A DNA stretch of 63,998 nucleotides, the filler included, from Collodictyon triciliatum (taxonomy: Eukaryota), in assembly GCA_043381765.1 (NCBI GenBank). It is 22 parts of 22 records of this genome, joined end to end, with 100 filler letters (N's around TTAATTAATTAA, not from the genome) between each part and the next. Parts side by side here need not be neighbours in the genome. Positions count along the whole stretch, not along the records: positions 61,212 to 63,998 come from JBHJMP010008265.1; 21 more parts are not named here. One strand, 5' to 3'. The notes under the pieces are model-generated. The model searched no databases. It was given only the letters and a program-made list of their open reading frames with translations, and was not told where the DNA came from. Shown piece after piece: positions 4,212 through 63,702 of the stretch (positions are counted from its first letter, which is position 1; every line of letters begins with the position of its first letter). The translations under genes and the position numbers were made by a program.

Positions 4212-5520
4212 TGCGAGTGCGAGTGCGGGAGTGTGAACGAGACCGAGATTCAGAACGTGATTGTGTTGGTGTGCGCGAGCGTGATGAAGAACTGGACCGT
4301 GACAAGGAGCAACCATTGGATCGAGAGCTGCCACAAGACTGTGATCGTGAGCGTGAGCGGGATGCAGAATGTGATGGAGAACGGGATCGGGAGTTCGAGC
4401 GAGAATGTGTGGGCGAAGGAGAGCGGGATTGCGAGTTGGACCGAGAACGGGAAGACGGGGATGAGTGTGCACGAAATGAGGATTTTTGATGCGATAGTTG
4501 TTTGGACGTGCGAGGATTCTGCCCTGTTTGTCGCTGAGAGTCTTGAGAGGACTGTGTTTTTAATGCGGCGGGAAGAAACAGAAGAAAAAAAAACGAGGCG
4601 CGAAGGTATTCCACATTCGTTAGCCGAAGCACATGCCCAAAAGGATGGATAAAGACTTGATGTGAATTATATTGCATAAGCGTATCATATAACTATTTTC
4701 TAAAGGCATACAAACATTATAGTGTCGCTGAGGTGGCTCATGGACTGTTGCCGGGCCGGAATTTCTTGAAGTCGGCGTGAAAGAGTGAGATTCAGGTGTG
4801 GGACCCTGCTCATGTCGATGTTCTTGAGAGAATGGTGGAGGGTGCCCTCGCGGGCTTGGAGCATAAGCCGGTTGATTTTGGCCACGATTATCATCAAACG
4901 GAGACGCAAATCGGCTCCGGTATCTGATGTGAGATTTCAAAGGCACTTACGCTCATAACAATTTCAATTATCGGCATATAAGGTTTTCATAGAGATATTC
5001 AAGCAATAAAAAAATTTTAGATAGGGATTTTAGATAAGGATACGAATTAAAATAGATTTTATAAGTGGAGAGTCTGTCATTATTAGAAGTGTACTGATTG
5101 GTTTTTGAAGAATATTATCAGTGAATAAGACTTCATCTATATCAACGTTAAGTTGCTGACAATTGCACTACCTGGGACTTGGATCATGTTGGTGATATGG
5201 CCGTGCCTCCTTCCTGTATCATAGTATGAAAGATTTTTTTTTTATTCTTCCTTTCGATTTTGTGCAGGATGGTGAAGATGTTGGCTTTGGTTCGCTAACC
5301 ATCGATCATAGTTTGAAAGATAATCAATTCCATCATGTATGTTTCAGAATGAAAAAGAAAATATATAACTGGGCGTTTGGAATTGTCATTCAGGTGACGG
5401 AAGAAAACGTGAACGCACGAACCTGGGATCCCAGAGTGAGGAGCGTCGATCGGGTGCGTCATGGTACGCGTGGAATGGTGGTGGGCGCCCTCTCATTGGT
5501 GGGCCCTATGGTTTAGAGCT
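3254..5520 (-). CDS. Partial Arg/Ser-rich (RS-domain) protein; exons approx. 5423-5520, 5172-5213, 4717-4923, 3254-4551
   Basis: A long SRSRSR tract, partly encoded by (CGGTCT)n; exon phases are compatible; a GTAAGT donor at 3253 suggests the gene continues. Confidence 0.7.
5234..5304 (-). mobile_element. 5'-truncated LINE subfamily A 3' end, inside an intron
   Basis: Matches the 3' UTR at ~63635-63702; poly(A) tail; 16-bp TSD ATCATAGT(A/T)TGAAAGA at 5218-5233 and 5305-5320. Confidence 0.88.
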
Positions 5521-5875: not shown

Positions 5876-8088
5876 CTTCGAATGGATTGCCTCCTAAAGA
5901 GAGGCTTTGAATTCTGGTCATACCAGTGAAGTTAGGGACAGTACCTTAGCGACATGTAAATAATGCTGTGAGTATCAGTCTTTTATCGATATCACTCAGA
6001 CTATATCCGATTTTTGCTCTTTTAATTTATCAAGCAAAAAAAAAATGTAGAGATGGGATGCAATCCACACATGAAAAACTATTTATGTCTTTAGCATCTT
6101 AATTGTTAAATTAAGATTTTGCTCCTTTATTCAATTCAAAGTTTTATACTGGGGTTAGAGCATACCATAGAGTGCGTTATTGCTTAACACGAGTTCTTTT
6201 AACATGGGAAAGGTGGAATTTTTTGCGATGGTACCTATATGAATCAAATATAGATAAAATGCTGATATAGTTTTTTTTGAAGAATAAAAACAGGAAAGTA
6301 CCCTCTTAATATGCCTTTGCTTGATGTTTGACATACCAGTGAGTTTGTTTCCTGAAGTTGACAATATTTCCAAGTTGCTTAAGTGTGTGAGTTCTGGGAT
6401 GGAGCCTGTTAGAAACGTCATTAGTAAGACTATGAGGCAACATTTTTATGAAAGGTGATATCACACGCATAAAATAACTCACCTTCTAACCGATTGTTAC
6501 CCAGAGAAAGAATTTTAAGCATAGGGGCGTGATTGAAATTTGGAATGGGTCCTATTTTTTTTTTATTTTTTAATGAAGGTAATATTCGTAATTGTATAAA
6601 TTCCTAACAAATGTCGCGTCGACTCTAGTACCATTGCAATCAATTAGGTTTATTATTTGTTTTGAAATAAATGTCTCATTGTATCGATATAATTGATTGC
6701 AAGAACAAACGGAGAAACGAATGGTAAATAAATTCACAAACACAATATTAATACATATGTTTGTAATGTTAAAGAAATATGAACCCGAATTTCAAGACTC
6801 TGATAGATAACATATACTCACCAAGGAGGCTGCAGAAATAGATAGCGATATAGTCAATGTAAGGGATGGATGAGAAGTTTGGTAATGTTCCTAGAAAATG
6901 AAAATAGAAAATAAGAATCGAAAACCGAATCGGACCGTATAAGAAAAAAACTTCACAGGCTGGGAAAATACCTGAAATTTGGATACTTGACCCGATGAAA
7001 ATCTTTCGAAGCAAAGGGGTCATGGAAAAGTCAGGAACTGTTCCACTTAGGATATTTCCATCTATTTCGATATGATTTATTGCTGGTATTTGTTGGAAAT
7101 TATGAATTGTCCCGCTAATTTGGTTCTCGTATATATTTATATATTCCAATAGGGGGAAGTTAAAGTCCGGTAAATCTCCAAAGACAGCGTTTGAGCTCAG
7201 GTCTAGATATATTATATTCGGAAGCTTTTGTAGTGCGGTTATCAGAAGACTGATATCTCCGAAGATGAAATTGAAGTCCAGTCGCACACTTATGACGGGG
7301 CATATATCGGCCTAGAGAAAATAAGTAGATGTTACTTATTTTACCATTCATTCGTTTCTTCATTTGAATTACTTATGTAATAAATCTCGTAAAGCGAATC
7401 AGTATGTGGATAGGTAACGAATGTCTAATGATTTAAACCTGAATATCTTCTTTAGAACAGCCACTACGGCAAAGGATTCCATACCATCGGCATATCGGTA
7501 TATCATCCATTTTCCATCCATAGTTGAAGAACCAATAATCTCCATCGGATGAGTCATAAAAATCGGTCAGTGCTTCTCGTTGGGCAGACAGGGAATTGTT
7601 CAGAAAAGGTAAATTGGCTTCATTTGAGCTCTTTTGTCCGCTAAGGTCATTCTTGTAATCAGATGAATTTCCCAGGATGTGATAATCTCTGAAGAAATGC
7701 ATGTTTTCGGGGCTTTGTTCCTTCTGTGAGATTGCTCTCGCTCCTGATTTGTAGGAAGTTTGGTGATGGTTCACGTGAAGGTCATCTGTGAGCACATAAA
7801 TAGTGTGATGCGCATCTCGTATTTCTATGGGGCATATCTCTGCGTGCTGGTCAAGGAGAATATGAAAGGCGTCCTCCATTCTCATGGCCAACAGCTCATC
7901 ACGAGAGTAGGAGCAGGCTCCTCCCCGAGCAAATCTTTGCAATGCGATACTAAATTAAATAATTGTTTACATCCTGTGTGTTCTGGTGACATGTCATAAA
8001 AACGGAAGGAAGTATAGTGATGGGTATACCTTTCGACAGATATTGACTTGTTAAAACAAATCAGCGCAAGTATGGTTGCAGTTACCAT
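5876..8088 (-). CDS. Partial secreted or receptor-like LRR protein (signal peptide, LRR N-cap, LRRs)
   Basis: N-terminus MVTATILALIC; cap QREALTDFYDSSDGDYW...W...ICRWYGILC; repeats LxxLxLxxNxLxGxIP; canonical introns. Confidence 0.85.
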
Positions 8089-11878: not shown

Positions 11879-13278
11879 AGAAAGCTAAGTGTCCAGAATG
11901 AACTCGACGCTCAAAACAGGCAAAAGAAGCACATGCAAGAATTCATCGACAAACAACGTGCCTCATCAAACCTCGCATCAGGAGACCCGAAGAAACAGGT
12001 TCCCATCCTTAATCTGATTCACCTGTTGAATTTTTTTTTAAACTAGAGAAAGAAAACTTGAATTGCCCTTTAGGATGGTTGTAGCGACACGCAACTATAA
12101 TCTCTTCTATGAAAAAAAAATATATGGATGACTTGCTGTTGTATTTATTATCCTTAAAGTAATTCAATCACACAGCAACTGGCGAAATCGAGGGCGTATC
12201 GAATATCTAGAATGGGAGCAAAGCGCGAGGATGGAAAGAAATGGCAACTCTCTTACACAGGATGGCGACCTCAAATCCATGTTGAAAAGGAGGAAAAAGT
12301 CTACAGTTTTGAATTTCTAGAGCCTCCATCATTCACAGGAACACCAGTATTGCAGGCTCGCAATATTAGTTTCGGATATAGTTCTCCGACTGCATTACTG
12401 CAAGACGTTACTTTAGATATTTCTCTGACCAGCCGCGTGGCGAGTGAGTATTTGTTAAAATTATAATAATAATCTCTTGAATGGTTTCGCTAAAGTGTTA
12501 TATGTTTCATCATAGTTGTTGGAAAGAACGGCTCTGGCAAAACAACGTTGCTTCGACTGTTAACGAAGGCCATCGATCCTAAGCAAGGTGAAGTGTACCA
12601 TCACCCAAGGCTAACAATCGGGCATTTCACCCAACACCATGTGGAGATGCTGAACCTCGAGATATCTGCATTTGACCATCTCCAAGCACTTTATCCCTCT
12701 GATGCCCCTCTCACACTTCGAAAGCATTTGGGTTCCTTTGGAATCCACGGCGACCTTGCCTTGCGGCCCATGGGAGTGTTGTCTGGGGGCCAAAAAAGCC
12801 GAGTAGTCTTTGCGGTCATTGCCTACCAACGCCCTCACATCCTTTTCTTGGTAGGTGCTATCAAATTGATGAATATGTGTTGGGGGTTTTTTTTTTTATT
12901 CTTCCTTTCAATTTTGTGCAGGATGGTGAAGATGTTGGCTTTGGTTCGCTAGCCATCATTTGCATGGACGCTACTTATGAATATGTGTTGGGTTGATATA
13001 CCATATATCTCGTTTGCATGCAGGCATGTTGCGGATTATTAATTTAGTTGATTTAGGACGAGCCGACAAACCACCTGGATTACGAAACAATGGGTGTCTT
13101 GAGCCAAAGCCTTGCGGATTTCAAGGGTGGCGTTGTTATCATCTCACACAACCAAGATTTTCTAGCTGGATGTTGCCAGCAGCTATGGCACGTGCACAAG
13201 AAGAAAGTAACTGATATGATGGCTGAGCATGAGGAATTCCTGGAAGCTTACATGACATTCTGCGAGCAGAACCAGTAG
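11879..13278 (+). CDS. ABCF-family ATPase (GCN20/ARB1-like), C-terminal half, 4 exons
   Basis: Walker A GKNGSGKTT, signature LSGGQKSRV, Walker B ILFL|DEPTNHLD, H-loop ISHNQDFL; no transmembrane segments in the visible part. Confidence 0.92.
12885..12976 (-). mobile_element. 5'-truncated LINE subfamily A 3' end in the last ABCF intron
   Basis: Matches ~63617-63702; poly(A) tail; perfect 16-bp TSD ATGAATATGTGTTGGG at 12869-12884 and 12977-12992. Confidence 0.92.
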
Positions 13279-13435
13279 TCTCTCTTTCACAATTCACTTA
13301 TAATTGGTCTATTCAAAGGCAAAATAAAACTTACATCAATAGCCAAAACGATTCATTTGATGTGCTGAAAAAGTGGCGAAATGTTTTGGATCATGTGTTC
13401 TTTGGTGCCCTCTCACCCAATATGATACACAAGAT

Positions 13436-13574
13436 TTTTTTCCTTTATTCGATTCAAAGTGCAGCAAGGTTATGCCATACAAAGGGGCGAGATAGGTGCG
13501 CATGGTAGAGAGCAAACGCGGGTAGGAGAAGACACTACTGTGGAGGGGGTAGCACTGGAAAGAAGTCAATATTG
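13436..13574 (-). mobile_element. 5'-truncated LINE subfamily B 3' end
   Basis: Similar to 62860-62990; encodes ...IDFFPVLPPPQ*; TSD-like TGATAC(A/G)CAAGAT at 13423-13435 and 13575-13587. Confidence 0.8.
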
Positions 13575-15199: not shown

Positions 15200-17240
15200 T
15201 TAACATGAGATGTTTTCCTCATCTCTTTTCTCTGTTGACAAGTGCTGGGCTTCGGAAGTGCCTTCATTTGCGCCATCCCCCAGTTGAAGTTCTGTGTTAG
15301 GGGGTGGGATTTGCTCGATGGTTGGGTTTTGATTGTATGCCTCTTGATTGCTTTCTTGGTGCTCTATTTTCGCGGTGTTTTCCAAATGATCACCAGTAAT
15401 CACATTCTCAAAGAATATGTCCGTAGCCTCAGCTGGGTGGGTAATCACCATCCCGGCGAGAAGGACATGCTGGAATCCATATACAACAGCGAGCTGTCGA
15501 TGAGATAAAAGGGAATATCAACCATGGTTACATCGAAACAGAAGTGATTAATGGTGAATTTGGTTGAAGTGTATTTCTTTTGATTCTTGGACTTTTCTTT
15601 ACTTTAAATAGAAGGACGGCTCAAATGTATGTTTTTCATCAATAAAAATTCTTTTTTTTTCTGATTGAGTTACGAGCTTCTTCGTTATCTTATTATGCGA
15701 CGTTCTGGTGTGTATTGTTTGAATAATCTCAACTGGTGTGTAAATCAAAAAAAATCATGCATAAAATGCAATACTCACTAGTAAATAGACACCACGGGTA
15801 AACTCATCGTCATATCCATTATATGCGATAAGTATGACCAGCGTCATCACTGCATAAAGTGCATCAGAGATAAGAGTAGAAAGGACAAAGGATGGGACGC
15901 TTGCTCCCACCAGAAAAAAATGGTCTTCCACGTGGCTGGGCCTTAATAAAAATTTCATCAGATTCCATCAGCTTGATTATTTGCGTATTCTTTAAGCTCA
16001 GATTAACCCAAACTTAAGACCCATAGACACATAGCTGCCAATCTAAATAGGTGAATCCAAAAAGAGAGAGAGAAAAAAAGAATCAAGATAGAGACCTTCG
16101 TCTCAGTATTGCTATAGGAACATAGNNNNNNNNNNNNNNNNNNNNNNNNNNNNNNNNNNNNNNNNNNNNNNNNNNNNNNNNNNNNNNNNNNNNNNNNNNN
16201 NNNNNNNNNNNNNNNNNNNNNNNNNNNNNNNNNNNNNNNNNNNNNNNNNNNNNNNNNNNNNNNNNNNNNNNNNNNNNNNNNNNNNNNNNNNNNNNNNNNN
16301 NNNNNNNNNNNNNNNNNNNNNNNNNNNNNNNNNNNNNNNNNNNNNNNNNNNNNNNNNNNNNNNNNNNNNNNNNNNNNNNNNNNNNNNNNNNNNNNNNNNN
16401 NNNNNNNNNNNNNNNNNNNNNNNNNNNNNNNNNNNNNNNNNNNNNNNNNNNNNNNNNNNNNNNNNNNNNNNNNNNNNNNNNNNNNNNNNNNNNNNNNNNN
16501 NNNNNNNNNNNNNNNNNNNNNNNNNNNNNNNNNNNNNNNNNNNNNNNNNNNNNNNNNNNNNNNNNNNNNNNNNNNNNNNNNNNTCTTATTCAATTATATA
16601 TATATAATAAATTACCTCACAGGTGCGAAAAACAAAAGAGCACCATTTACGATATCCTTGACCGTACCTATCCAAAATGTTTATTTTTCGTTTTTAAATT
16701 ATGCTTTGCATCATAGGACTATTACATGCATTTCATAGTGTAAGTTAGAAAATGTTTTATTTTCACAAGAAATCTGTCGGTAACATATTCGCAAATGAAT
16801 CAAGCAAGTTGACTAGACCATACAATGGGGCCATTAGCCTTTCTGACTCAACTGTTGACAGTGCGACGGAAGATATGGACAGGGCCAATGATATTATTTG
16901 CAATAAAGACGCCTCTTGTCTGTTAAGGCATGATTATTATTTTTTTACATGAGATAGGGAAAAAAAGGGAGAAATTTAATAAAGGTTTCCTTGATAATAT
17001 TTTTTCATCATTGAACAAAATGTGTATTCACTTTGATAAGACAAAATAGGTTTGCAGCAAAGATTGTGGGATGGATTGCATCATGGCGGTGGTGGCCTTA
17101 ATAAATTATTTTCTTTTTGTGAGATAATATTAAGCACAGCACCAAAAGGGAGCTCATTTTTGCAAAATTTTCTCACACTGGATTGCAAAGGAAGTATATA
17201 ATTATTCTACCTTGGTAAACTGGAACTCAGTGGTCATGAC
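15200..17240 (-). CDS. Partial XK-related (Xkr scramblase family) multi-pass membrane protein
   Basis: Spliced segments MMQSIPQSLLQTYFVL, SLLQIISLALSISSVALSTVESER and FVFRTCE resemble XK motifs (ESxPQLxLQxY; SxxxSxxS); several hydrophobic exons; internal N gap. Confidence 0.55.
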
Positions 17241-22028: not shown

Positions 22029-22901
22029 ATGCAAGAGATGCAAAGGCTTCAAGCAGGTTAGCGCCCTTCCAGCCCACCTTTTAAAAGTAAATTAAAGTAA
22101 AAATAAATTAAAATAAATTAAAATAAATTAAAATAAATTAAAAGTAAAATTAAAGTAAAATTAAAGTAAAAATAAAGTAAAAATAAAGTAAATTAAAGTA
22201 AAAATAAATTAAAATAAATTAAAATAAATTAAAATAAATTAAAATAAATTAAAAGTAAAAATAAAGTAAAATAAAATAAAATACAATAAAATACAATAAA
22301 GTAAAATAAAGTAAAATAAAGTAAAGTAAAATAAAGTAAAATAAAGTAAAATAAAGTAAAGTAAAATAAAGTAAAATAAAATAAAATAAAATAAAATAAA
22401 ATAAAATACAATAAAATACAATAAAATACAATAAAATACAATAAAATACAATANNNNNNNNNNNNNNNNNNNNNNNNNNNNNNNNNNNNNNNNNNNNNNN
22501 NNNNNNNNNNNNNNNNNNNNNNNNNNNACAATAAAATACAATAAAATACAATAAAATACAATAAAATACAATAAAATAACAATAAGAAGAAAAATGGAAG
22601 AAATAAGAAAAAATAGGTAAACTTTCTTGGGACTCTAGTACACACCTGATGCCCTAATAAAAAAATACGATGCAAAAACATAGCCCTCGAAGCGACTGAA
22701 CAGGATGATGGTTGTATGGCAGAATGCAAGGAGTTGAGCGAGGTCATTACTGAGCTTCAAAAACTGCTCCGTGGACAGGCATCGCCATCCTGGAGCGTCG
22801 TTTACCAGTGCAACCTTGACCCACTCGAATTCGGAGGTGACGAAGACAACAGTGTCGAAGACGAAGAGAACATACTTTTGGAAAAACTTGCCATAAAATG
22901 A
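22029..22901 (+). CDS. Possible small acidic hypothetical protein (2 exons)
   Basis: MQEMQRLQA|ALEATEQDD...LLEKLAIK* joined by a GT-AG intron that contains a repeat and a gap; no recognisable family. Confidence 0.3.
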
Positions 22902-27107: not shown

Positions 27108-27992
27108 TCAATTTCCCGTGTAATGGAGGAATAGGAATGCTAGGAAAAGACCAGCAAGAGCAAATATCACTAATTTTAAACGCTCGACTTTTGCCTGTAG
27201 AGTGGCTGATTTATCTCTTTCATCTCCTAGAGTCCTTACCACAAACATATATTCTTTTTCCATCGCCTGGTTGTTTTCAAATAACATTCTTTTCAGGCCG
27301 GATATTTCTAATCTTTTTGATTCCACGAATTGCTTCTGAGATGCAATCGTATCAGCCGAAGTTGCAACTCCTTCAGAGAGGTCACTTATTAATAGCTCGG
27401 AGTCATGTCTAAGTTTATGCATACTTGCATCTTTCTCATGATTTTCATTTTTTAGACGGTTAATTATTGTATCTTTTTCGTTGATAGAGCTATCTTTTGA
27501 TATGAGTTCCTCTCTTAATAGGCAAACTTCGGTGGATTGCTCCTCAAGAGATTGTCGGATTTTTTTGTTACTTGTATAAAGGCCCTCCATGTCACTAAGC
27601 ATTCTCCTCTTCAGAGCCTCATCTGCTTGAATCCTGTTTCTAAAAGTATTCATCTCTTCATTGTATGTCTCAACGAGTTGCTTGACTTCATTCTGATGTT
27701 GTTCGCTCAGTCTGACCATCTCAACAGCAAAGTCGCCTTCTTGTTGCCTGATCAGCTTCGTCTTCTCATCTAACAGTCCTTCGGTTTCTTGCAATGCTTC
27801 AACAGCCTCATGCAATTGGAAGTTTGGGATTGTCCGAGGAAAACTTATCACAGTGCAGCATTGTGGACACTGTTTCATATCAGGAGGAATGCATTTCGAG
27901 CAGTAACTATGACCGCACATGAGCACAACCGCGTTAACAAAGCGACTCCAACAAACAGGACATATCACCTTCGCATGAACTGTTGTAGCCAT
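27108..27992 (-). CDS. Intronless RING-HC + coiled-coil + C-terminal transmembrane protein (tail-anchored E3 ligase-like); may start at 28049
   Basis: CPVC...CGHSYCSKC...CPQC, a long heptad-rich region, and a terminal LVIFALAGLFLAFLFL segment. Confidence 0.85.
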   Translation of the reverse strand: MATTVHAKVICPVCWSRFVNAVVLMCGHSYCSKCIPPDMKQCPQCCTVISFPRTIPNFQLHEAVEALQETEGLLDEKTKLIRQQEGDFAVEMVRLSEQHQNEVKQLVETYNEEMNTFRNRIQADEALKRRMLSDMEGLYTSNKKIRQSLEEQSTEVCLLREELISKDSSINEKDTIINRLKNENHEKDASMHKLRHDSELLISDLSEGVATSADTIASQKQFVESKRLEISGLKRMLFENNQAMEKEYMFVVRTLGDERDKSATLQAKVERLKLVIFALAGLFLAFLFLHYTGN

Positions 27993-30473
27993 CAAACTTG
28001 AATCCAAAAAGCCGCGAACAGTCTTTCTTGCGAGGTGCTCTACGATCATTCATTCATCAGCAAATGTACTGGACTCTTTCGTTTGAGATTGGGTTGAATG
28101 AAGTGATGGAAAATAGCTGACGAAAAAGCCTTGATGCTCATCCGCCTTTTCTGTTTTTCCTTTCTTCTTATGATTAATAAGTAAAAACACCGCCTTTCGA
28201 TCAGAGAAGGTAGGTGCTTGGATGTCATGTCCCTGGGTTACAGCTGAGGACGTAACGCCGACCGTTTAAGTGGGTTTCAGCTTATTAGTCTTTCCTTTTC
28301 AGACCCAAAGCTTTGACACATTCCCACACAATTCCATCCGAGGTTGAAAAGGGCTCGAGCAGCTTGGAGAAGAGCAGAAGGACATAAGTCAAGAAAATCT
28401 TCAATCACTTTCAACCGATATAGTGCGGAGCAGATGCTGGCGGTGACTACTTTGTGTCGAAACAGACATGTTCGCTCGCTCAGAACGAATAATCATGATA
28501 CGCAAATTAGGATGCGTGAAACAAACTCAGTCAGAGAGCGATGATGCATAGCAGCGATATGCAGAACCGTATAACCCGATGGATCACCCATTTTTTCGGG
28601 TTGCATTCTTTTCTGTTTCTCAGAATCCATGGTTACAAACTAATCGCTTTACTTTCGCTCCCGATGGTTTCCTCTCCCTCATAAAGCATTCTGTTTCTAA
28701 ATATCATCCCTAATCAAGTACATACAAAGAAAACACTATGATTGAAGTCACGCCGAGCACATCCCATACTCCAGGGTCGAATACTTGTATATGAAACAGA
28801 ACGAGCAATTTTTCCATTCATCGCTTGGGCGAATACTTTCAACGAGAGCAAACACTACGCATTTTAATCAGTATTGTTTATCCATTCCAAAAATTGTTCC
28901 TTGCTTCATGATTCAATCGGTCTGTATACATTTGTTCACAAAGATGATGGTGAGTGATAAGTACCATCCCTATGTCAATACTTGCTTGTATACTCAAGGT
29001 GAATATTAGCAATTAGTTTAAATTAGTTCAGTTATGAATCATATTTGGGACGCTGCCTTTTCTTCCNNNNNNNNNNNNNNNNNNNNNNNNNNNNNNNNNN
29101 NNNNNNNNNNTTAATTAATTAANNNNNNNNNNNNNNNNNNNNNNNNNNNNNNNNNNNNNNNNNNNNAGAATGGAAGGATGGGATAACATACAGCAAGGAT
29201 ATTAGAGAAGAAGATAACTGGATTGTTCGGTTTCGAGGAGAACTTAGAGAACGAACAACAAGGATATTTGACCAAATCCACAGAATCACTACCAACGTGA
29301 CTATAGAAAGTAGTGTCTAGTCTAGATGTTTATTTTACGCTATTTAATGTTTTTATATTGCGTATCCTCTTAAGCAATTTCCCAAAGACATGAATCCTTC
29401 TTTATTCTTTATCTCTCACAATTTTCTTTACTTTCCATCCATTTTATTATCCCTTTTTTTTTTCATTTTTCATTTTTCGTTTTTCGTTTTTCGTTTTTCG
29501 TTTTTGATACATGTTTTCACTTCACATTGTCGGGTGTTCATATTGTACGGTGTGATGTTTGAATAGAGCCAACATCGATTCAGTAATTCCTTGCACAACC
29601 AACCAATTTTCTTTATATTTTTTTCTGTCTCATATGAATATGTAATGACAAAGGAGGTAAGAGAGCACGTGTTGCAAACAAGCTAACAAACCAACAAACA
29701 GAAAAAAAATATTCGCCTATCTTTCATCTTATTCGAAGAAAAGAGACCTCTGCCCCAAATCTTAATAAAAATCACAGCCGCGATAAGGCCATGAGCTAGG
29801 TACACCTAGCACTTGCGTGGTGTGTTTGCTGATCTACCGGGGGACTGAATCAGACACATGTCTTTCCTTTTTTTCTTTCTTTTTTCTTTCTTTTTTCTTT
29901 CTTTTTTCTTTCTTTTTTCTTTCTTTTTTCTTTTTTCTTTTTTCTTTTTTCTTTCTTTTTTCTTTCTTTTTTCTTTTTTCTTTTTTCTTTTTTCTTTTTT
30001 CTTTTTTCTTTTTTCTTTTTCTTCCTTTTTCACTTGATCTCTTTCGTGTTTAAGAACGCTGTTGCCGACCACTTTTCGTACAGAGGAGCCAGATAAGTTT
30101 TTCATAAGTAGCTAGTCGAGTCGTGATCTTGGAGTTTCCCACGCTTCATATTCCTTTTCTGTGCCAGTGAACATGATTTTTCTTGCTAGCGCTTTTGTTT
30201 GCTGGCTATTGTAATTGTGATGCTCCCGTTTTTTCCCTTCCAAAAGCATAAGCTTTGCGATACAATAGTCTGAAGCAGCTCCAACACAGAGCAGACAAGG
30301 GGGCTTAATTTAGCTCGTCCTTAAAACAAATAATGATAATGGCCCGTTTATATCATTCGGGGAGAATATACGTAACCTGTTTTCGTATCAATTGAATGGT
30401 ATGATAAGCTCAGTGATGCAAACTCCCGTAACTTTTGAATGACCAGCAGCCGATGTGGAGAAGTAACTCGGCG

Positions 30474-43974: not shown

Positions 43975-44020
43975 TTTTTTTTTTATTATTCTTCCTTTCA
44001 ACTTTTGTGCAGGACTGAGG
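43975..44020 (-). mobile_element. Very short LINE subfamily A 3' tip
   Basis: TCCTGCACAAAAGTTGAAAGGAAGAATAA plus poly(A); TSD GAAGAAATAAG at 43964-43974 and 44021-44031. Confidence 0.8.
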
Positions 44021-48892: not shown

Positions 48893-49190
48893 AGAAAGAA
48901 ATCAGTGATAGCGAGTTGGTCAGGTGGGCGACCCAACTGGTTGATTAGTTGTGTGGGTAGCAGTGGGTTGGATATGCTGTGGGAGATATCTTACGACACA
49001 TTCCCACATCTCTCTTCGCTTGCAGTCAGAGTAGCGAAGAATGCGAGCGTGTTTCAGCAGGCTGTTCAGGAAGCTGTATTGCACGAGGCTTTCCAGCCTG
49101 GATACATTGATTTCTCGCTCGGGTGAATCATTGGAGCGAGAGAATGCGCGCACACTCCATAAGGACCACAGCATATGTCTCTCTTGTGAC
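48893..49190 (-). mobile_element. LINE subfamily B ORF2 C-terminal fragment (1-nt frameshift, tail missing)
   Basis: Near-identical to 62985-63152; encodes HMLWSLWSVR...SFLNSLLKHARILRYSDCKRREMW. Confidence 0.85.
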
Positions 49191-49309
49191 TGTCCAGAGT
49201 ATTCTAAGCGTGCCTCAAATCTAAACAGAGGCGGAAGGGAATTTCACATGGCACGCAGCGTAATACATCAATTTATACTCATATTGATATTATATTATGT
49301 TCAATATTC

Positions 49310-49340
49310 GCTGCACTTTGAATCGAATAAAGGGGGAAAA
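49310..49340 (+). mobile_element. ~31-bp LINE subfamily B 3' tip
   Basis: GCTGCACTTTGAATCGAATAAAGGGGGAAAA flanked by the TSD TATTAT(G/A)TTCAATATTC (49293-49309 and 49341-49357). Confidence 0.8.
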
Positions 49341-49868
49341 TATTATATTCAATATTCACTGTCATATTGATATTGATATTGATATTGATATTGATATTGA
49401 TATTGATATTGATATTGATATTGATATTGATATTGATATTGATATTGATATTGATATTGATATTGNNNNNNNNNNNNNNNNNNNNNNNNNNNNNNNNNNN
49501 NNNNNNNNNTTAATTAATTAANNNNNNNNNNNNNNNNNNNNNNNNNNNNNNNNNNNNNNNNNNNNAAAAACATAAAAACATAAAAACATAAAAACATAAA
49601 AACATAACAAAGAAAAAACAAAAAACAAAAAACAAAAAAACAAAAAACAAAAAACAAAAAACAAAAAACAAAAAACAAAAAACAAAAAACAAAAAACAAA
49701 ACAAAAATATCATAAAATATCATTAATAAAATAAAATAAGAACAAAAAACAAAAAAAAAGTGAAATAATGAATGGAACCCCCTTTCTAAAGCAAAAGTGC
49801 CCCTCTGCAAAGCATCTCTTGCCACAGCCAAATATTTGACAATATTCCTACTTCTTTACTTCAGAAGG

Positions 49869-55834: not shown

Positions 55835-58011
55835 ATGAAAAAGTTGTTTGGTCGTTGCAGAATATGTCTTAGATAAGATCGTGGTTGCGATGTAAGCTCT
55901 CGCGATCCACTTCAGTAGTTGCAAATAAAAAAATAATGGAATATAAAATGGATATGGATATGGATATGGATATATTACGTGATCTAATAAATATAAACGC
56001 AATCAAGAGGTCAGTTTTTTTCGTTCATTTCATTGGAAATGTAAATGGTATGTTATATGTTGGTTCTCGAATATTGCGTTTTATTATTATTTTCATTAGT
56101 CCCATTTGTATATGTATTTGTATTTGTATTTGTATTTGTATTTGTANNNNNNNNNNNNNNNNNNNNNNNNNNNNNNNNNNNNNNNNNNNNNNNNNNNNNN
56201 NNNNNNNNNNNNNNNNNATTTGTATTTGTATTTGTATTTGTATTTGTATTTGTATTTGTATTCTAACTTTCCCTGCCCTAATCCTAAAAGATATTTCAAT
56301 TAGTGATGAACTGAATGCCCAAATATTTGAGAGAATTTGCAATCAACAAAGGAAGAAAGAACTTCATGATTGTGTGGAAAGGTAAAAGGAGACAAAAAGA
56401 TATAATAAAATAAAGTAAAATATATAAGGAAATATCACGATATGGATGTTAGCTCTCTCATACATCACACACAAGGTTAAATTTATTTATAACCTATTTC
56501 AAGGTCAGCTACATCAGAGATGGTCGATATAGAATCCGAGCTGATTAAAATCGACACGAATATCAGTGATTCATCTGAAAAAGAAAAAGAAATAACGGAA
56601 AAACTGGAAATTTTGAGAATCGAAACTCAGCAACTGAAACAAATCTTATTCAAAGACCCTATTACCGACGTCCATGATTTAGTAACTTAGACACGACGAA
56701 TATGCAGACATTTTATGAGAACAATATCTAGATTTCACCTATATACATTCTTTTTGTAATGTATCATTTAAACCCTTAAAAGATTGACCAGATCACTATA
56801 TATCTCGGGGATGTGAACATAAAAACTGAAAGCATCCTAAAGTCTAAGGTAAATTGAGGACCCAAACCTATATTTAGGTCGTTGTGCAAATTCCAACAAG
56901 TATTCTCCTCGCACAACTTATATCCGAACAACTTTTGATCCATCCTTGTTTTAATGACTTTACAGATGAGGTTGCTTCCGGAAAAAGAGCCTCTCTGGGA
57001 GAGAATTCAGGATGCTATTGACCAAAGCAAAGATATATTTATTGGCGTGGCTGAAAAACTAAAACAAATAACGTCCTTTTTGAGAATTATTCATCTGGAG
57101 CACGTAATATATTGATAAAAGAAAACTGTCGAAAGGAAGCAAAAAAAAAAAAAAAGCGTTATTTTACTGACCCTTACAATTTATCAAAATCGAAAGTCGG
57201 CGATTATAGACAGGTATAAAGGAAGTCTACTTGCACTAGCCCTATCTTCAATCGATGCAAGCTACGACCGACTGAGCTCTCGCATACAACTGAGCAAGGC
57301 ATAATGAAAAGCAATTTGTCTCTTTTTCTTTTTCTTTTTTTCTTTTTTTCTTTTTTTCTTTTTTTCTTTTTTTCTTTTTTTCTTTTTTTCTTTTTTTCTT
57401 TTTTTCTTTTTTTCTTTTTTTCTTTTTTCTTTTTTTATTCTTTTTCTTTTTTTTCTTTTAAGAATCAGCCAGCCCTACTTTAAACCCATCATTGTATAGT
57501 TCCTTTTAGAATAATATTGGCTTGATTCATATTTTCTTAAAATTGTCTTATCTCTTTACCTCAGAAGGGCTCAGTCATAATGTTTGCTTGCGTTTGTTAC
57601 CTTTTATTTCTTTTTATTAAATAAAAAAAATGTATATAAACAAGTCTGAGGCGAAGGTTACCACGATGTTTAAGATGAATTTAGAACGGCGAATTTCGTG
57701 TGTTGAACTGGTAACTGTCACTCTAGCTATCCTCATATGATACACCCGCACCATTTTTGGGTCAATGACGAGAAGCACTTTTTTCTCTTCATTTTCCTTT
57801 AAGAATACCACATTTTGTCGGTTCTTTTTCTATTAGACATTTATTTATCATGTTCTTTTAATATCTCTCATTAATCTGACATCACTGTCTGCAGAGCACA
57901 AGAATGTCACTTCATCATATCCTTGAACGAATGCTGGATGTTGTGATGCAAGAGCAAATACAAGAAGAATATTCAAGAACTCTTATGCAGCTGACAAATT
58001 CACCCAACTTG
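55835..58011 (+). CDS. Partial multi-exon coiled-coil protein, unidentified
   Basis: About eight exons splice into one frame; one junction requires a GC donor at 57299. Confidence 0.55.
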
Positions 58012-58370: not shown

Positions 58371-60267
58371 ATACGCGTTCTCTCACCAGCTGCTGACACA
58401 ATCCATCAAAGAGCGATACTTTATGGATGAAGCATACGCAAAAAGTGAAGCACGTGAATATGGATTGTGGCTGCTGGGTGAATACGGCTCTGGCACTGAA
58501 GACAAGTGTGTTGTTGCCGAAATATGCCACAATCTGAGGATTTCGAGCGAATATGATAAACTAGTGGATTTTATGAAGAATGAAAAGGTTAAATTATGGA
58601 TTTTATTTTTTACTGTGACCTGTGTTGTAATATAGTCTTTTAGGCTGTTGTGAGCATGCTGGATGGCAACTATCGCTTCGAGTTTTATGAATGCTGGAGA
58701 GCGCTGAATAAGAACGGTTATGACCACAAAGCTGTGTATCGTGAGTTGGCCAAGGTGATAAAACTCAATTATATGTATCAACAATGAATTTATATTAATG
58801 CGTATGTATAACAGCAACTGAATCCTGCTGGCTCTGCGTTGGTTGAATACTTTCGACAAATCCAAGAGAATACCTTTTTGATTCCGATTCTTGAGCACCG
58901 CATTTCTGTTGAGACGGATGAGGGTTTGGTCAGTTGATTTGGATTTTATGGGTGTGTTGCTAACTTTTGGTTTATCTTTATTAGGTTCGAACAGCAAAAA
59001 TATGAATTTTCTGGGAAATGTTTATCTTCAACTTGGAGAGTATGATTTATTTGATTATGTGTATATATTTATCATTTAATTGGCTTATTATTTAATAGAC
59101 ATGATAAAGCTCTGGAATACTACCACAAATCATTGGAAATCCGACTGAAAGTGTTTGGAGAAGTGCATACTTATGTTGCCAATTCATATATGGGAATTGG
59201 GATAGTTTACAAGAATCTTGGAAAGTATCTTTTATTTGATTATATTTATGCTTATCCTTCATTAACTTATCATTTAATAGACATGACAAAGCTCTGGAGT
59301 GCTATCACAAATCACTGGATATTCGACTGAAAGTGTTTGGAGAAGTCCACCCTGATATTGCCGCTTCATATAATAATATTGGGAACGTTTACAAGAATCT
59401 TGGAAAGTATCTTTTATTTGATTATATTTATGCTTATCCTTCATTAACTTATTATTTAATAGGAATGACAAAGCTCTGGAATACTATCACAAATCACTTG
59501 AAATCCGACTGAAAGTGTTTGGAGAAGTCCACCCTGATGTTGCCGAATCATATAACAACATTGGGGTCGTCTATGGGAAACTTGGAAAGTATATTTTATT
59601 TGATTATATTTATGCTTATCCTTCATTAACTTATTATTTAATAGGAATGACAAAGCTCTGGAGTACTATCACAAATCAGTTGAAATCCGACTGAAAGTGT
59701 TTGGAGAAGTCCACCCTGGTGTTGCCACTTCATATAATAACATTGGGGTCGTCTATAGGAAACTTGGAAAGTATATTTTATTTGATTATATTTATGTTTA
59801 TCCTCTCGTTAACTTATTATTTAATAGACATGACAAAGCTCTGGAGTACTGCCACAAATCAGTGGAAATTAAGCTGAAGGTGTTTGGAGAGGACCACCCT
59901 AATGTTGCCACTTCATATAATAACATTGGAAATGTTTACAATGACCTTGGAAAGTATCTTTTATTTAATTATGTATTTTTGATCATTTTCGTTAACTTAT
60001 TTTTTTAATAGGAATGAGAAAGCTCTGGAGTACTATCACAAATCAGTTGAAATCCGACTGAAAGTGTTTGGAGAAGTCCACCCTGATGTTGCCACTTCAT
60101 ACCACAATATTGGTAATCTACTGATGAACCAGAAGAAATATCAAGAGGCTGTGGACATGTACCAAAAAGCCAAGAAGGTGTATGAGCATGTGTATGGTGC
60201 AGACCATTCCGAGACGAAAGATGCAGAAAAAAAAATGATGAATGCACAGAAGATGCTGACCCGATAA
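58371..60267 (+). CDS. C-terminal part of an NPHP3/TTC41-like TPR protein with six tandem TPR exons
   Basis: FSHQLLTQSIKERY...AEICHNL segment, then 42-aa repeats DKALEYYHKSLEIRLKVFGEVHPDVAxSYNNIGxVY; repeat exons start at 59099, 59281, 59463, 59645, 59828 and 60012. Confidence 0.9.
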
Positions 60268-61211
60268 GTGGCTCGTCTGTTACCCACCCCATCTAAACAA
60301 CCCATTCATCCACCCATACACCACCCTTTCCACAAAACAAGTACAAGTGAGTACTATCCCGATGACCGCCAAACCGAACGAGTGCAGACGACTGCTAGCT
60401 TGTTTGCAGAGGCTGGATGAAAAGAATAAAAAAAAAAACTAACCAACCTAACCTTTCCAGCAGTTGCCGATAAACGTGACACGTCTCCTGTTTGTTTAAC
60501 AACCGATCTTGAGAATGTATCACAGGCGAAAAGAATGATTATGTGTTGGTTATCATTGTGCCACTGAGCTGTTTGTTTTCATTTGATTTTTCACATTATT
60601 TTTTTTTCGCTTGGTTAAGTGTCGCAATGTCAGCTTCAGGGACATAATCTTTTCTTTTTCTTTTTGCGCCCATGATGATGGTGGGCTGTAACGATACATG
60701 CACTCGCTTTGTGAGCCTTTATTCTGTCTTATATTTTATTCATCGACTTACTTGAAGGCTCTCGGTATCCTTGACTGATTGCACTGTTGTCTGTTGGATG
60801 AGCAGTTGTTTGATTATTCGCCGAAGTGTTTTGTTGTTTTGTTGTTTTGGTTTATTGGCTCCACAGTGCGATTAGTCTCGGTTTTTTCTTTGACATTCAC
60901 CTGCTCACTACATTTCTTTTTGTTTACTTTTTCTTTTCTTTTTTATTTCTTTTTTATTTCTTTTTTATTTCTTTTTTCTGTTTTCTTTCTTTTTTTCTTC
61001 TGTTTTCTTCTGTTTTCTTCTCTTCTCTTCTCTTCTCTTCTCTTCTCTTCTCTTCTCTTCTCTTCTCTTCTCTTCTCTTCTCTTCTCTTCTCTTCTCTTC
61101 TCTTCTCTTCTNNNNNNNNNNNNNNNNNNNNNNNNNNNNNNNNNNNNNNNNNNNNTTAATTAATTAANNNNNNNNNNNNNNNNNNNNNNNNNNNNNNNNN
61201 NNNNNNNNNNN

Positions 61212-62298
61212 AAACTATTCTTTTGTCGCTGATAAATATAACTGCTCTTCGGAAAGTTCATCTATAAACATACTCTTCGTTTTTTTTTTTATTATATTTG
61301 AATTTTGAATTTGAAATAGCTTTCTTTTCAAACAATAATGATACCGCCAAGCCGTCTGTTTGTATCGTGTATTTAAAATTGTAGCCTCTTTGATGAAAGA
61401 CCCTCTTCTTCATTTCAAAGAACTTATCCCATATGGTCTCTTTTGCATCCTGACATATCCTCCAGTAGTGATGCTTTTTCAGTTGATACTAATAGATAAA
61501 TCAAACATGTGATATCTAGAGTAATATGACACGGTATATTGTTAGTTCTTATAGAGATTGGTTGAAACAGTTTGGTTCCAATGTCCTCAAAAATGTGATT
61601 CATGTATATCAGACATGGAATGTTCTTACTTGGATTGAGTTTGACGTCATATTCGATACCTTTTACAATATCGCTGGGAATGATACGATTCACATGTATT
61701 GCAGCCCATCCTTTATAATGTTCCGGTATTTCGAATTTCTTGAACATGACTTTTTTAACTTTCGTAACTCTGCCTTTTTAATAGCTTCCGTAATACTCTC
61801 ATCTTTAGGAACTGTTTGATTTATAAAGCGCAGTAACCTCTTTACAAAATGCTCCTTAATGTTACTACGATAAGCTGCTAACATTTGCTTCGCCAGGGCA
61901 GTAACACGTGAGACAATCCAAACAACGGAAAGCATTCTTCTCGGGTCAAAAGGAATCGGAAATCATTGAGATAAAAGGTCATCATGTCATTGCTCATTTC
62001 TGGACGTTTTTTTTTAAAAATCTTGCGGGTCTATCTTGTGAAACTATTCCGACTGTCTATAAAGCATACAAAAAAGAAACATTTCATCGATTGTTGGGAG
62101 TTGTTATGGTTTCAATATGTAACATCTTGCAAACAGATAAGGGTCGGTAACCAAATTATGACACAATAGAACCGCATCGTTGATTTTGTCATAGTCATTC
62201 GCATTCTTTACAATCGACTTTAGAGATGTTTTCACATTTCGATAGTGTGGTTTTGCAAGCTTTAGATTCTCAAACTGAAGAGATTTTGTTTTCTCCAT
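61212..62298 (-). pseudogene. Degraded Fanzor1 (eukaryotic TnpB-related RNA-guided nuclease), N-terminal part, cut by the contig end just before the expected RuvC-I
   Basis: Intronless, collinear motifs VKTSLKSIV...KINDAV...YLFARCYIL, LPTIDE, NIKEHFVKRLLRFIN, YDVKLNP...IYMN...KLFQPISIRTNNIPCHITLD, IWDKFF...TIQTDGLAVSLLF and IDELSEEQL...KRIV; several frameshifts and stops. Confidence 0.85.
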
Positions 62299-62344
62299 CT
62301 GAAAGTCTTTGTTTTACTTTTTCCTTTAGAAAACTACCGTGTTT

Positions 62345-62352
62345 TCAATTTT
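62345..62352 (-). promoter_or_regulatory. AAAATTGA motif (Mimiviridae early-promoter-like) ~47 nt upstream of the Fanzor ATG
   Basis: Exact octamer on the coding strand, but in AT-rich context where a chance match is possible. Confidence 0.4.
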
Positions 62353-62855
62353 AATAAAATTTTAGTCAATTAGTCAATTTAATAAATAATTTTAAAAAAA
62401 ACTGCACAAAATAAATTGAGGTAAAATTAAGCATCTACCGAGACTTTCAAAATGTGCACATTGTGGCAAACAAACACACAAAGTTTTTTTTTATAAAAGT
62501 GATTTGAGACAAAACGCTGAGGGCCAACTCGGTGAGTTCGAAAGGACGGCCGTATAACCATTGCGACTGAAAGTCAAAATATCGGCTCCAAACAACATGA
62601 TTATTGCCGAAAGTGTGGATAGTATGTTTTTCTGAAATGCATGTTTGGTGGTAGATTGATAGGGTGGCTTCTATCTGTGCCAAGGCAAGGGCTTGTTTGT
62701 CATTTTTTGAAATATAATGATAATATTACATAAATGAACAATAAAATATGAATTAATTACATGAATAGAATGATATTATGAAGTATCTTTAACATTATTA
62801 TATAATTCATTGTTTCTTGGATTCATCGAAGCTCCTGCTTTTGTCAATCCAGATT

Positions 62856-63152
62856 ATTATTTTTTCCCTTTATTCGATTCAAAGTGCAGCGAGTTTGTGC
62901 CATACAAAGGGGCGGGATAGGTGCACATGGGAGGGAGCAAATGCGGGTAGGGGAAGACACTACTGCGGAGAGACTAGCACCGAAAAGAAATCAGTGATAG
63001 CGAGTTGGTCAGGTGGGCGACCCAACTGATTGATTGGTTGCGTGGGCAGCAGGGGTTGGATATGCTGTGGGAGATATCGCACGACACATTCCCACGTCTC
63101 TCTTCGCTTGCAGTCAGAGTAGCGAAGAATGCGAGCGTGTTTCAGCAGGCTG
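62856..63152 (-). mobile_element. 5'-truncated LINE subfamily B (ORF2 C-terminus + 3' UTR + A-rich tail)
   Basis: Open frame NSLLKHARILRYSD...PPDQLAITDFFSVLVSPQ*; TSD TTGTCAATCC(A/T)GATT at 62841-62855 and 63153-63167. Confidence 0.88.
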
Positions 63153-63299
63153 TTGTCAATCCTGATTTAATTCGATGGTTGTATGTGCAATAAACTGCTA
63201 TATATGGGTACAATTTCATTGTATAAAAAAGCATTGTGTCTTGAAAGGTGTAAAAGCAAGTTCGTCACAACCTTTTTGATGAAGTCTATCCATTTACAG

Positions 63300-63702
63300 G
63301 GCAAGTGCGAGGCCATGTGCTATGGACTATGTGGATAGCACGCATATACTCATGCAATGCAAGACTCAACAACCAGCCACCCATTCCTGATAACAGACTG
63401 GATGACATCATACAAATCTCCTTTTCTCAACAGCTTCCTTCGCCACCTGCACGTTCTCTACTACTCAGACCCTGTGAGAAGAGACATGTGGAAAGAGGCT
63501 GAGAAAGAGATTAAACCTTGCCTTGCCTCTCTCATGCAAGCACAAGACCCAGGCTGCAGGCCAAACCGCAGGATGCAATTCCTGATTACCGACTACTTCT
63601 TCGCCACCCGGCCAACAAGTAGCGTCCATGCAAACAATGGCTAGCGAACCAAAGCCAACATCTCCACCATCCTGCACAAAATTGAAAGGAAGAATAAAAA
63701 AA
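63300..63702 (+). mobile_element. 5'-truncated LINE subfamily A (ORF2 C-terminus + 3' UTR + poly(A))
   Basis: GHVLWTMWIAR...SF(fs)LNSFLRHLHVLYYSDPVRRDMW...QFLITDYFFATR...*; TSD CATTTACAG at 63291-63299 and 63705-63713. Confidence 0.88.

Follow-up and report, generated by a model that had tools for sequence, protein, structure and literature searches.

At the start of the last contig in the window (by which we mean the whole 63,998-nt stretch of DNA that was analysed) lies a degraded coding sequence on the minus strand (62298..61213), opening at an ATG codon at 62298 and taking up the first 1,087 bases of that contig. The window is a pseudo-molecule of ~2.9 kb contigs, slowly decreasing in size, which are joined by 21 artificial six-frame stop linkers (N44-TTAATTAATTAA-N44); because it consists of joined contigs, genes flanking a linker in the window are not neighbours in the organism. 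Four further N gaps are present (47–109, 16126–16583, 22454–22527, and 56147–56217). The linker ahead of the last contig, which is a small unplaced piece of 2.8 kb, occupies 61112..61211, and base 61212 follows directly after it. The original prediction had placed the relic at a contig end, which is correct in that base 61212 truly is the first of its contig, but within the window this end is an artificial join in a pseudo-molecule.

Fanzor1 is the eukaryotic and giant-virus descendant of the transposon nuclease TnpB. An intact Fanzor1 binds an omegaRNA that is transcribed from the 3′ end of its element and overlaps the end of the ORF, and it recognises a transposon-adjacent motif (TAM) through its REC and WED domains. 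DNA matching the RNA is then cut by a split RuvC active site, supported by a NUC/TNB domain whose C4 zinc finger is located between RuvC-II and RuvC-III. Saito et al. 2023 (PMC10432273) describe TAM reading and heteroduplex binding as tasks of the REC lobe (WED + REC), with cleavage carried out by RuvC residues D383, E541, and D606 and directed by an omegaRNA that comes from the end of the transposon. The coding sequence at our locus represents the N-terminal ~350 residues of such a protein, i.e., the REC lobe (WED + REC), with no part of the nuclease lobe left. The contig edge and linker at 61112..61211 account for the absence of the RuvC domain, zinc finger, and 3′ end.

Followed against its relatives, the relic runs through nine frame segments on the minus strand (frames a-c-b-a-c-a-b-a, the first one divided by a TAA codon). 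Segment 1 (frame a, 62107..62298) begins with the ATG codon at 62298–62296 and covers residues 1–64, including a conserved YRNVKTSLKSI block (WED start/REC) for which the family consensus is YxTxKTSLKSI in alignment A1 (30 sequences, made up of 29 of 594–761 aa, chosen by length among the best 55 phmmer matches, and the fragment P0008). It aligns with residues 1–66 of the protein P0006 and is identical to P0028 at 36/67 positions. The first lesion, an in-frame TAA stop (62104..62106) placed by frameshift-aware alignment, comes next, and the frame then runs to ~62075 (QLPTIDEMF), where a frameshift beside a T6 run leads into segment 2 (frame c, 62006..62074; FLYAL*TVGIVSQDRP...). This segment holds a TAG stop at 62059–62057 and was read against P0035 (residues 44–139, 76/95 identical). 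A frameshift at an A9 run (62005–62014) leads into segment 3 (frame b, 61899..62003; PEMSNDMMTFYLNDFRFLLTREECFPLFGLSHVLL), which was read against P0035 and P0011.

A further frameshift near 61898 gives entry to segment 4 (frame a, 61750..61896; LAKQMLAAYRSNIKEHFVKRLLRFINQ...AELRKLKK), which belongs to the REC domain, aligns with the NVQEHFMQMLLRYIN block of the Spizellomyces punctatus protein SpuFz1, and is identical to P0011 at 103/135 positions; its best conserved part is the NIKEHF..RLLRFIN block. A 1-nt loss in an A6 run (61753–61758) then opens segment 5 (frame c, 61454..61747; MFKKFEIPEHYKGW...YDVKLNPSKNIP...KLFQPISIRTNNIPCHITLD...), recognised by similarity to the PpFz1 (E 0.019) and GtFz1 (E 0.18) chains and by hhalign to A1. 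Beyond a frameshift near 61453, segment 6 (frame a, 61264..61452; QDAKETIWDKFF...YNFKYTIQTDGLAVSLLFEKK...EEYVY) comprises the last WED strands, aligns with sITTDGasVSv of SpuFz1, and is identical to P0083 at 40/48 positions. Inside it lies IQTDGLAVSLLF (61365–61330, minus strand), and T318, D319, and G320 are invariant or near-invariant in A1. Segments 7–8 (61213..61262), placed by alignment to relatives, consist of DELSEEQLYLSATK (frame b), entered via a 1-nt loss near 61263, and, once a further nucleotide has been lost in an A run, KRIV (frame a, 61224–61213), which forms the final four codons.

Only three stop-to-stop frames exceed 75 aa (90, 117, and 76 aa), with smaller frames of 69, 50, and 64 aa also being part of the relic gene. 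The original prediction had spoken of an ORF split into three anonymous pieces; these three longer frames are presumably what was seen, but the gene itself is broken into nine frame segments. Its account of the visible part is otherwise borne out: the motifs do run to IQTDGLAVSLLF and then KRIV at the contig end, the sequence is intronless as far as it can be seen (it aligns colinearly with P0006 and P0008 once frameshifts are allowed for, and no insert is of intron size), RuvC and the omegaRNA lie beyond the contig edge, and the copy is dead, with 7 frameshifts and 2 in-frame stops.

The frameshifts are located near 62075, 62005, 61898, 61749, 61453, 61263, and 61225, and the stops are TAA 62106–62104 and TAG 62059–62057. 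To compare this copy with others, contigs from sources other than this assembly were placed on the relic region at ≥85% likeness, namely X1 and X3 (small runs of organisms A and B) and X4 (a freshwater metagenome). At the TAG site, all covering contigs carry T at 62059 (plus strand), giving Lys (AAG; n = 9 in X1, 5 in X3, and 3 in X4), while an extra T behind 61750, which restores the frame, is present in 3 contigs of X1 and 2 of X3, and 3 nt are missing at 62104 (the TAA site) in 3 contigs of X1. Given that other contigs show Lys at the TAG site, the frame-restoring T, and the deletion at the TAA, at least two lesions of the relic copy are private, and less damaged copies exist elsewhere.

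These frame-restoring variants, the small size of the unplaced contig, and the position of 4/7 frameshifts at homopolymer runs (T6, A9, A6, and A4) would also suit a gene that is intact in the organism, its frameshifts and stops being assembly or sequencing errors, unrecognised introns, or the mark of another genetic code. We consider this highly improbable, however. Although the homopolymer frameshifts could be sequencing errors, the three frameshifts outside long homopolymers and the two stops, each made by a substitution, would remain. An alternative genetic code is ruled out, as all three stop codons are present in every frame and recoding would be of no help, and the colinearity with relatives leaves no intron-sized inserts. 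Furthermore, two 151-nt contigs from an independent run, an estuary metagenome, match 62070–62362 perfectly (0 differences), both at the TAA and at the frameshift near 62075, and so disfavour an assembly error at these two sites. The relic copy is dead and does nothing.

The identity of the relic was approached with its translated pieces. A phmmer search with P0005, the frame-a read-through with X at stops, against 1.84 billion proteins gave 209 matches at E ≤ 1e-3, 19 of which were at ≤ 1e-10, the best being P0006 (634 aa, E 5.8e-25, query 11–327 on protein 12–331), which places the similarity well outside the range of chance. Against all PDB sequences, Fanzor1 chains were the only matches of the relic pieces at E ≤ 10: P0005 weakly matched SpuFz1 (E 0.15), in a colinear pair of stretches that includes the TDG block, the frame-c piece P0003 matched PpFz1 (E 0.019) and GtFz1 (E 0.18), and P0004 alone gave no match. 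The same chains were recovered strongly with P0006 (SpuFz1, E 9.2e-37 over residues 14–607; PpFz1, 7.2e-34; GtFz1, 7e-16; nothing else at E ≤ 0.01) and with the A1 profile (SpuFz1, 2.1e-102; PpFz1, 2.7e-99; GtFz1, 5e-72), these being its only 3 matches at E ≤ 1e-3. None of the TnpB, Fanzor2, or Cas12 chains in the PDB was matched by the A1 profile at this threshold. We thus rejected a Fanzor2 or IS607-type TnpB, Fanzor1 chains alone being matched (A1 at E ≤ 1e-3; P0006 at E ≤ 0.01).

A comparison of P0003 with A1 (columns 194–295) by hhalign returned a probability of 99.5% (E 1.6e-22). This match is an independent test, because the P0003 frame was junk in the query P0005. The original prediction had named Fanzor1 and proposed a check against Fanzor/TnpB profiles; that check went its way, the A1 profile finding three Fanzor1 structures and P0003 matching A1, and the Fanzor1 reading held up in each part that could be put to a test. 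Homology spans the N-terminal half of the family (WED + enlarged REC), and, judged from this homology, we regard the stretch as a probable decayed copy of a Fanzor1 gene, to which we assign a probability of roughly 0.92. The nuclease identity of this copy would draw on N-terminal-half homology only, since neither its RuvC and zinc finger nor the omegaRNA and the ends of the element fall within the window.

Other searches with the relic pieces were negative. Pfam and PHROG gave no family at a meaningful E-value, and a DUF5958 match (E 3e-4) was below its cut-off and judged to be chance. Word-based protein searches with P0003 and P0004 scored no match, and the best score of P0003 in the ESM Atlas (0.80) was at chance level. 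Scans of IMG/VR with P0003 and P0008, and of JGI metagenomes with P0008, found none.

The relic is nearer to several fragments than to the best phmmer match. In frameshift-aware alignments, it is identical to P0006 (residues 1–336) at 132/323 positions (41%) and to P0008 (residues 1–222) at 119/218 (55%), while P0011, P0035, and P0083 span 76–83%. P0008, P0011, P0035, P0083, and P0028 are fragments from public assemblies, 54–83% identical to successive parts of the relic, all short (50–291 aa) and from contigs of 525–11103 bp. Where the relic ends at ...SATK/RIV, P0008 reads ...STRKIVGVDPGK (...RKIVGVDPGK, RuvC-I). Since P0008 runs on into VGVDPGK, the contig edge cuts the relic 2–3 codons ahead of the first RuvC catalytic Asp, in agreement both with the family consensus (IVGxDPGK) and with the earlier expectation that the RuvC-I xDPG motif follows immediately. 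We also noted that the first 43 residues of P0035 (139 aa) are an out-of-frame Fanzor N-terminus, matching frame b of the window at 62204–62076; as P0035 starts in the wrong frame, its source copy is itself frameshifted, close to a frameshift of the relic.

The contigs placed at ≥85% likeness amounted to 671 pieces in X1, 638 in X3, and 236 in X4. X1 and X3 left none of the 30 bins uncovered, as many as 15–17 different contigs sharing one relic position, and the copies in contigs of related organisms are 85–99% alike. In related organisms, the 5′ flank (62299..62810, minus strand) recurs alongside the relic, as seen in contig pieces bridging 62209–62651, and we read the relic with its 5′ flank as a multi-copy family in these organisms. 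Loose contig ends accumulate at 62810 and 62860, which probably mark the end of the repeated unit, the flank probably holding the 5′ part or left end of the element. The proposal of a Fanzor-bearing transposon once resident in the genome, with other copies perhaps remaining, gains only indirect support from these many similar copies in contigs of related organisms. In the window, a second relic copy was not found; inverted and direct repeats in the relic contig were low-complexity matches only, and no transposase, terminal inverted repeat, target-site duplication, or TAM was definable at the relic. It is from the multi-copy status and the relatives that we infer a transposon copy.

Further along the relic contig lies a different and more abundant dispersed repeat of the host (62855..63702), other than the Fanzor element, recognised by self-matches within the window and by contig depth. 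It matches 48895–49066 (95% over 172 bp), 13434–13568 (87% over 135 bp), and 12891–12976 (96.5% over 86 bp), with further matches at 5237–5302, 43981–44014, and 49308–49345. The family is thus common to six window contigs at 87–96.5% identity (five besides the relic contig), and in runs X1 and X3 its summed depth is ~10× that of the relic. GC content climbs from 0.33–0.37 in the relic to 0.42–0.48 in this repeat, the window mean being 0.366. ORFs of the repeat, like those of the flank of the relic contig, showed no Pfam family.

As the 62855–63702 repeat is common to other window contigs, the relic contig belongs to the same genome as the window. A small unplaced contig could instead be a contaminant from another organism, and no sequencing run contained half of the sampled words of the relic; but with the repeat shared at such identity with five other contigs, and with a microsatellite style the same as in the rest of the window, we give contamination very little credence. 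Long microsatellites (GAA/CTT, ATT, and SR-coding repeats) were observed throughout the window, in which Rfam and tRNA scans gave no matches.

A neighbouring contig carries a TPR_12/TPR_10 repeat gene (59240–60267, plus strand) with one 42-residue repeat per exon, its exons being split by near-identical 56-nt GT-AG introns into a tandem exon-intron array with a unit of 182–183 nt. This gene, with its 56-nt GT-AG introns, indicates that the host is a eukaryote, and the relic resides in a eukaryotic genome, which together with large eukaryotic viruses is the setting of Fanzor1, as judged by the TPR introns and the common dispersed repeats. Ordinary eukaryote-type gene fragments also occur elsewhere in the window, including a RING-finger/coiled-coil ORF (27108–28049, minus strand), an ABC-transporter ATPase exon (12494–12952, plus strand), and an LRR ORF (6769–7311, minus strand).

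The full-length relatives retain the parts that the relic lacks. The RuvC-I Asp (IVGxDPGK) is present in 30/30 sequences of A1, the RuvC Glu (DExxTS) in 29/30 (the single gap being the fragment P0008), and the RuvC Asp of NRDxN in 28/30 (one Asn, one gap). The A1 consensus contains CxxC...CxxC, and the Cas12f1-like TNB zinc-ribbon family (PF07282) was found at E ≤ 0.01 in 6/10 full-length relatives, in 2/10 above the curated cut-off, and was absent at E ≤ 0.01 in the other 4/10. Judged by sequence, these relatives have the appearance of competent RNA-guided nucleases like those that Saito et al. 2023 characterised.

Giant viruses (giant-virus MAGs) encode the two best full-length relatives of the relic. 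A gene on a 254.5 kb GVMAG contig (L001) shares 88% identity with P0006, and one on the IMG/VR contigs L002–L004 (57, 173, and 82 kb) shares 80%; P0007, whose scan returned 7 loci, is 100% identical to a GVMAG gene. L002, L003, and L004 are 100% identical over the fetched 6.3–9.9 kb; being the same virus assembled from three samples, they count as a single observation. Similarity between L001 and L003 is confined to 3,354 bp (74% identity), which corresponds to a 3.3 kb Tc1/mariner-type element (2631–5952 in L001, 2625–5951 in L003) with TA-flanked terminal inverted repeats of 32–33 nt. Two divergent proteins are encoded by the element, a DDE_3 transposase (346 aa, Pfam E 1.3e-13) and a Fanzor1 of 634 aa, the stop codon of the latter lying 15–20 nt ahead of the right repeat. 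As the flanks are unrelated, the two are independent insertions. Elements of this kind, i.e., Fanzor within a Tc1/mariner-type transposon, were described by Bao & Jurka 2013 (PMC3627910), a comparable case being PGv-1 of Phaeocystis globosa virus.

At the relic, a Tc1/mariner element as in L001 was rejected, with neither DDE_3 nor viral repeats in the ~1.7 kb 5′ flank. Across the window, no DDE_3 transposase relic was found (best tblastn E 0.52, away from the relic), nor did the terminal repeats or intergenic DNA of the viral element find a match.

With giant-virus genes matching P0006 (80–88%) and P0007 (100%), and with viruses having been proposed as spreaders of Fanzor by Bao & Jurka 2013 (PMC3627910), the relic might be a leftover of integrated giant-virus DNA carrying a Fanzor1 element rather than a member of a cellular transposon family. 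However, the relic is only 41% identical to P0006 and has the closer relatives described above (P0008 at 55%; P0011, P0035, and P0083 at 76–83%), which come from public assemblies, the IMG/VR scans with P0008 and P0003 being empty. The relic and its flank are multi-copy in related organisms, the GC content of the relic matches the window mean, a dispersed repeat of the host begins 560 bp upstream, and the 2.8 kb contig shows no other viral gene. Taken together, these points make viral integration improbable, if somewhat less so than an intact gene or a contaminant.

A cellular transposon family is the reading we prefer. The relic would belong to a family of mobile elements, multi-copy and probably non-autonomous (Fanzor-only), that may have spread in this eukaryote lineage and would now be decaying. 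Copies that lack the lesions of the relic copy persist in the related organisms A and B. Going further, a high-copy Fanzor1-only (non-autonomous) family might still be active in this aquatic eukaryote lineage and have been exchanged with giant viruses, a proposal that we hold to be rather doubtful, albeit considerably more plausible than any of the alternatives to the preferred reading. If it were true, intact copies would amount to a new Fanzor1 orthologue, having a TAM and an omegaRNA of its own, and to a concrete case of virus-host traffic of RNA-guided nucleases.

The relic is an ordinary dead fragment of the already known Fanzor1 kind, found in eukaryotes and giant viruses. On its own it matters little, dead and partial Fanzor1 copies being known to litter host genomes (PMC10432273). 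Its value is rather as a pointer to a lineage that holds a Fanzor1 family, with the nearest intact relatives in giant viruses, from which intact nucleases and guide RNAs could be recoverable, and as a data point on the movement of Fanzor between viruses and hosts.

Among known systems, the giant-virus Fanzor1 genes (P0006/L001–L004) are the best full-length relatives and show what the intact unit looks like; unlike the viral copies, the relic resides in a cellular eukaryote and is dead. A close characterised protein is SpuFz1 (PDB 8GKH, 9CEU–9CEZ; PMC10432273), with which A1 aligns end to end (E 2.1e-102, profile 4–613 on chain 399–1027). While the relic on its own matches SpuFz1 weakly (E 0.15), the two are colinear at NIKEHF..LLRFIN/NVQEHF..LLRYIN and IQTDGLAVS/ITTDGASVS, with the relic lacking everything from the RuvC-I Asp (D383 in SpuFz1) onward. 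The S. punctatus genome likewise has partial or degraded copies, with 42 Fz loci reported, 19 full-length and 23 partial (PMC10432273). TnpB (IS200/IS605 and IS607) and Fanzor2 share common ancestry and the same mechanism with Fanzor1, that of an omegaRNA-guided RuvC nuclease (PMC10432273, PMC3627910). Compared with TnpB and Fanzor2, the part specific to Fanzor1 is its long REC/WED N-terminal half, and the relic retains nothing else.
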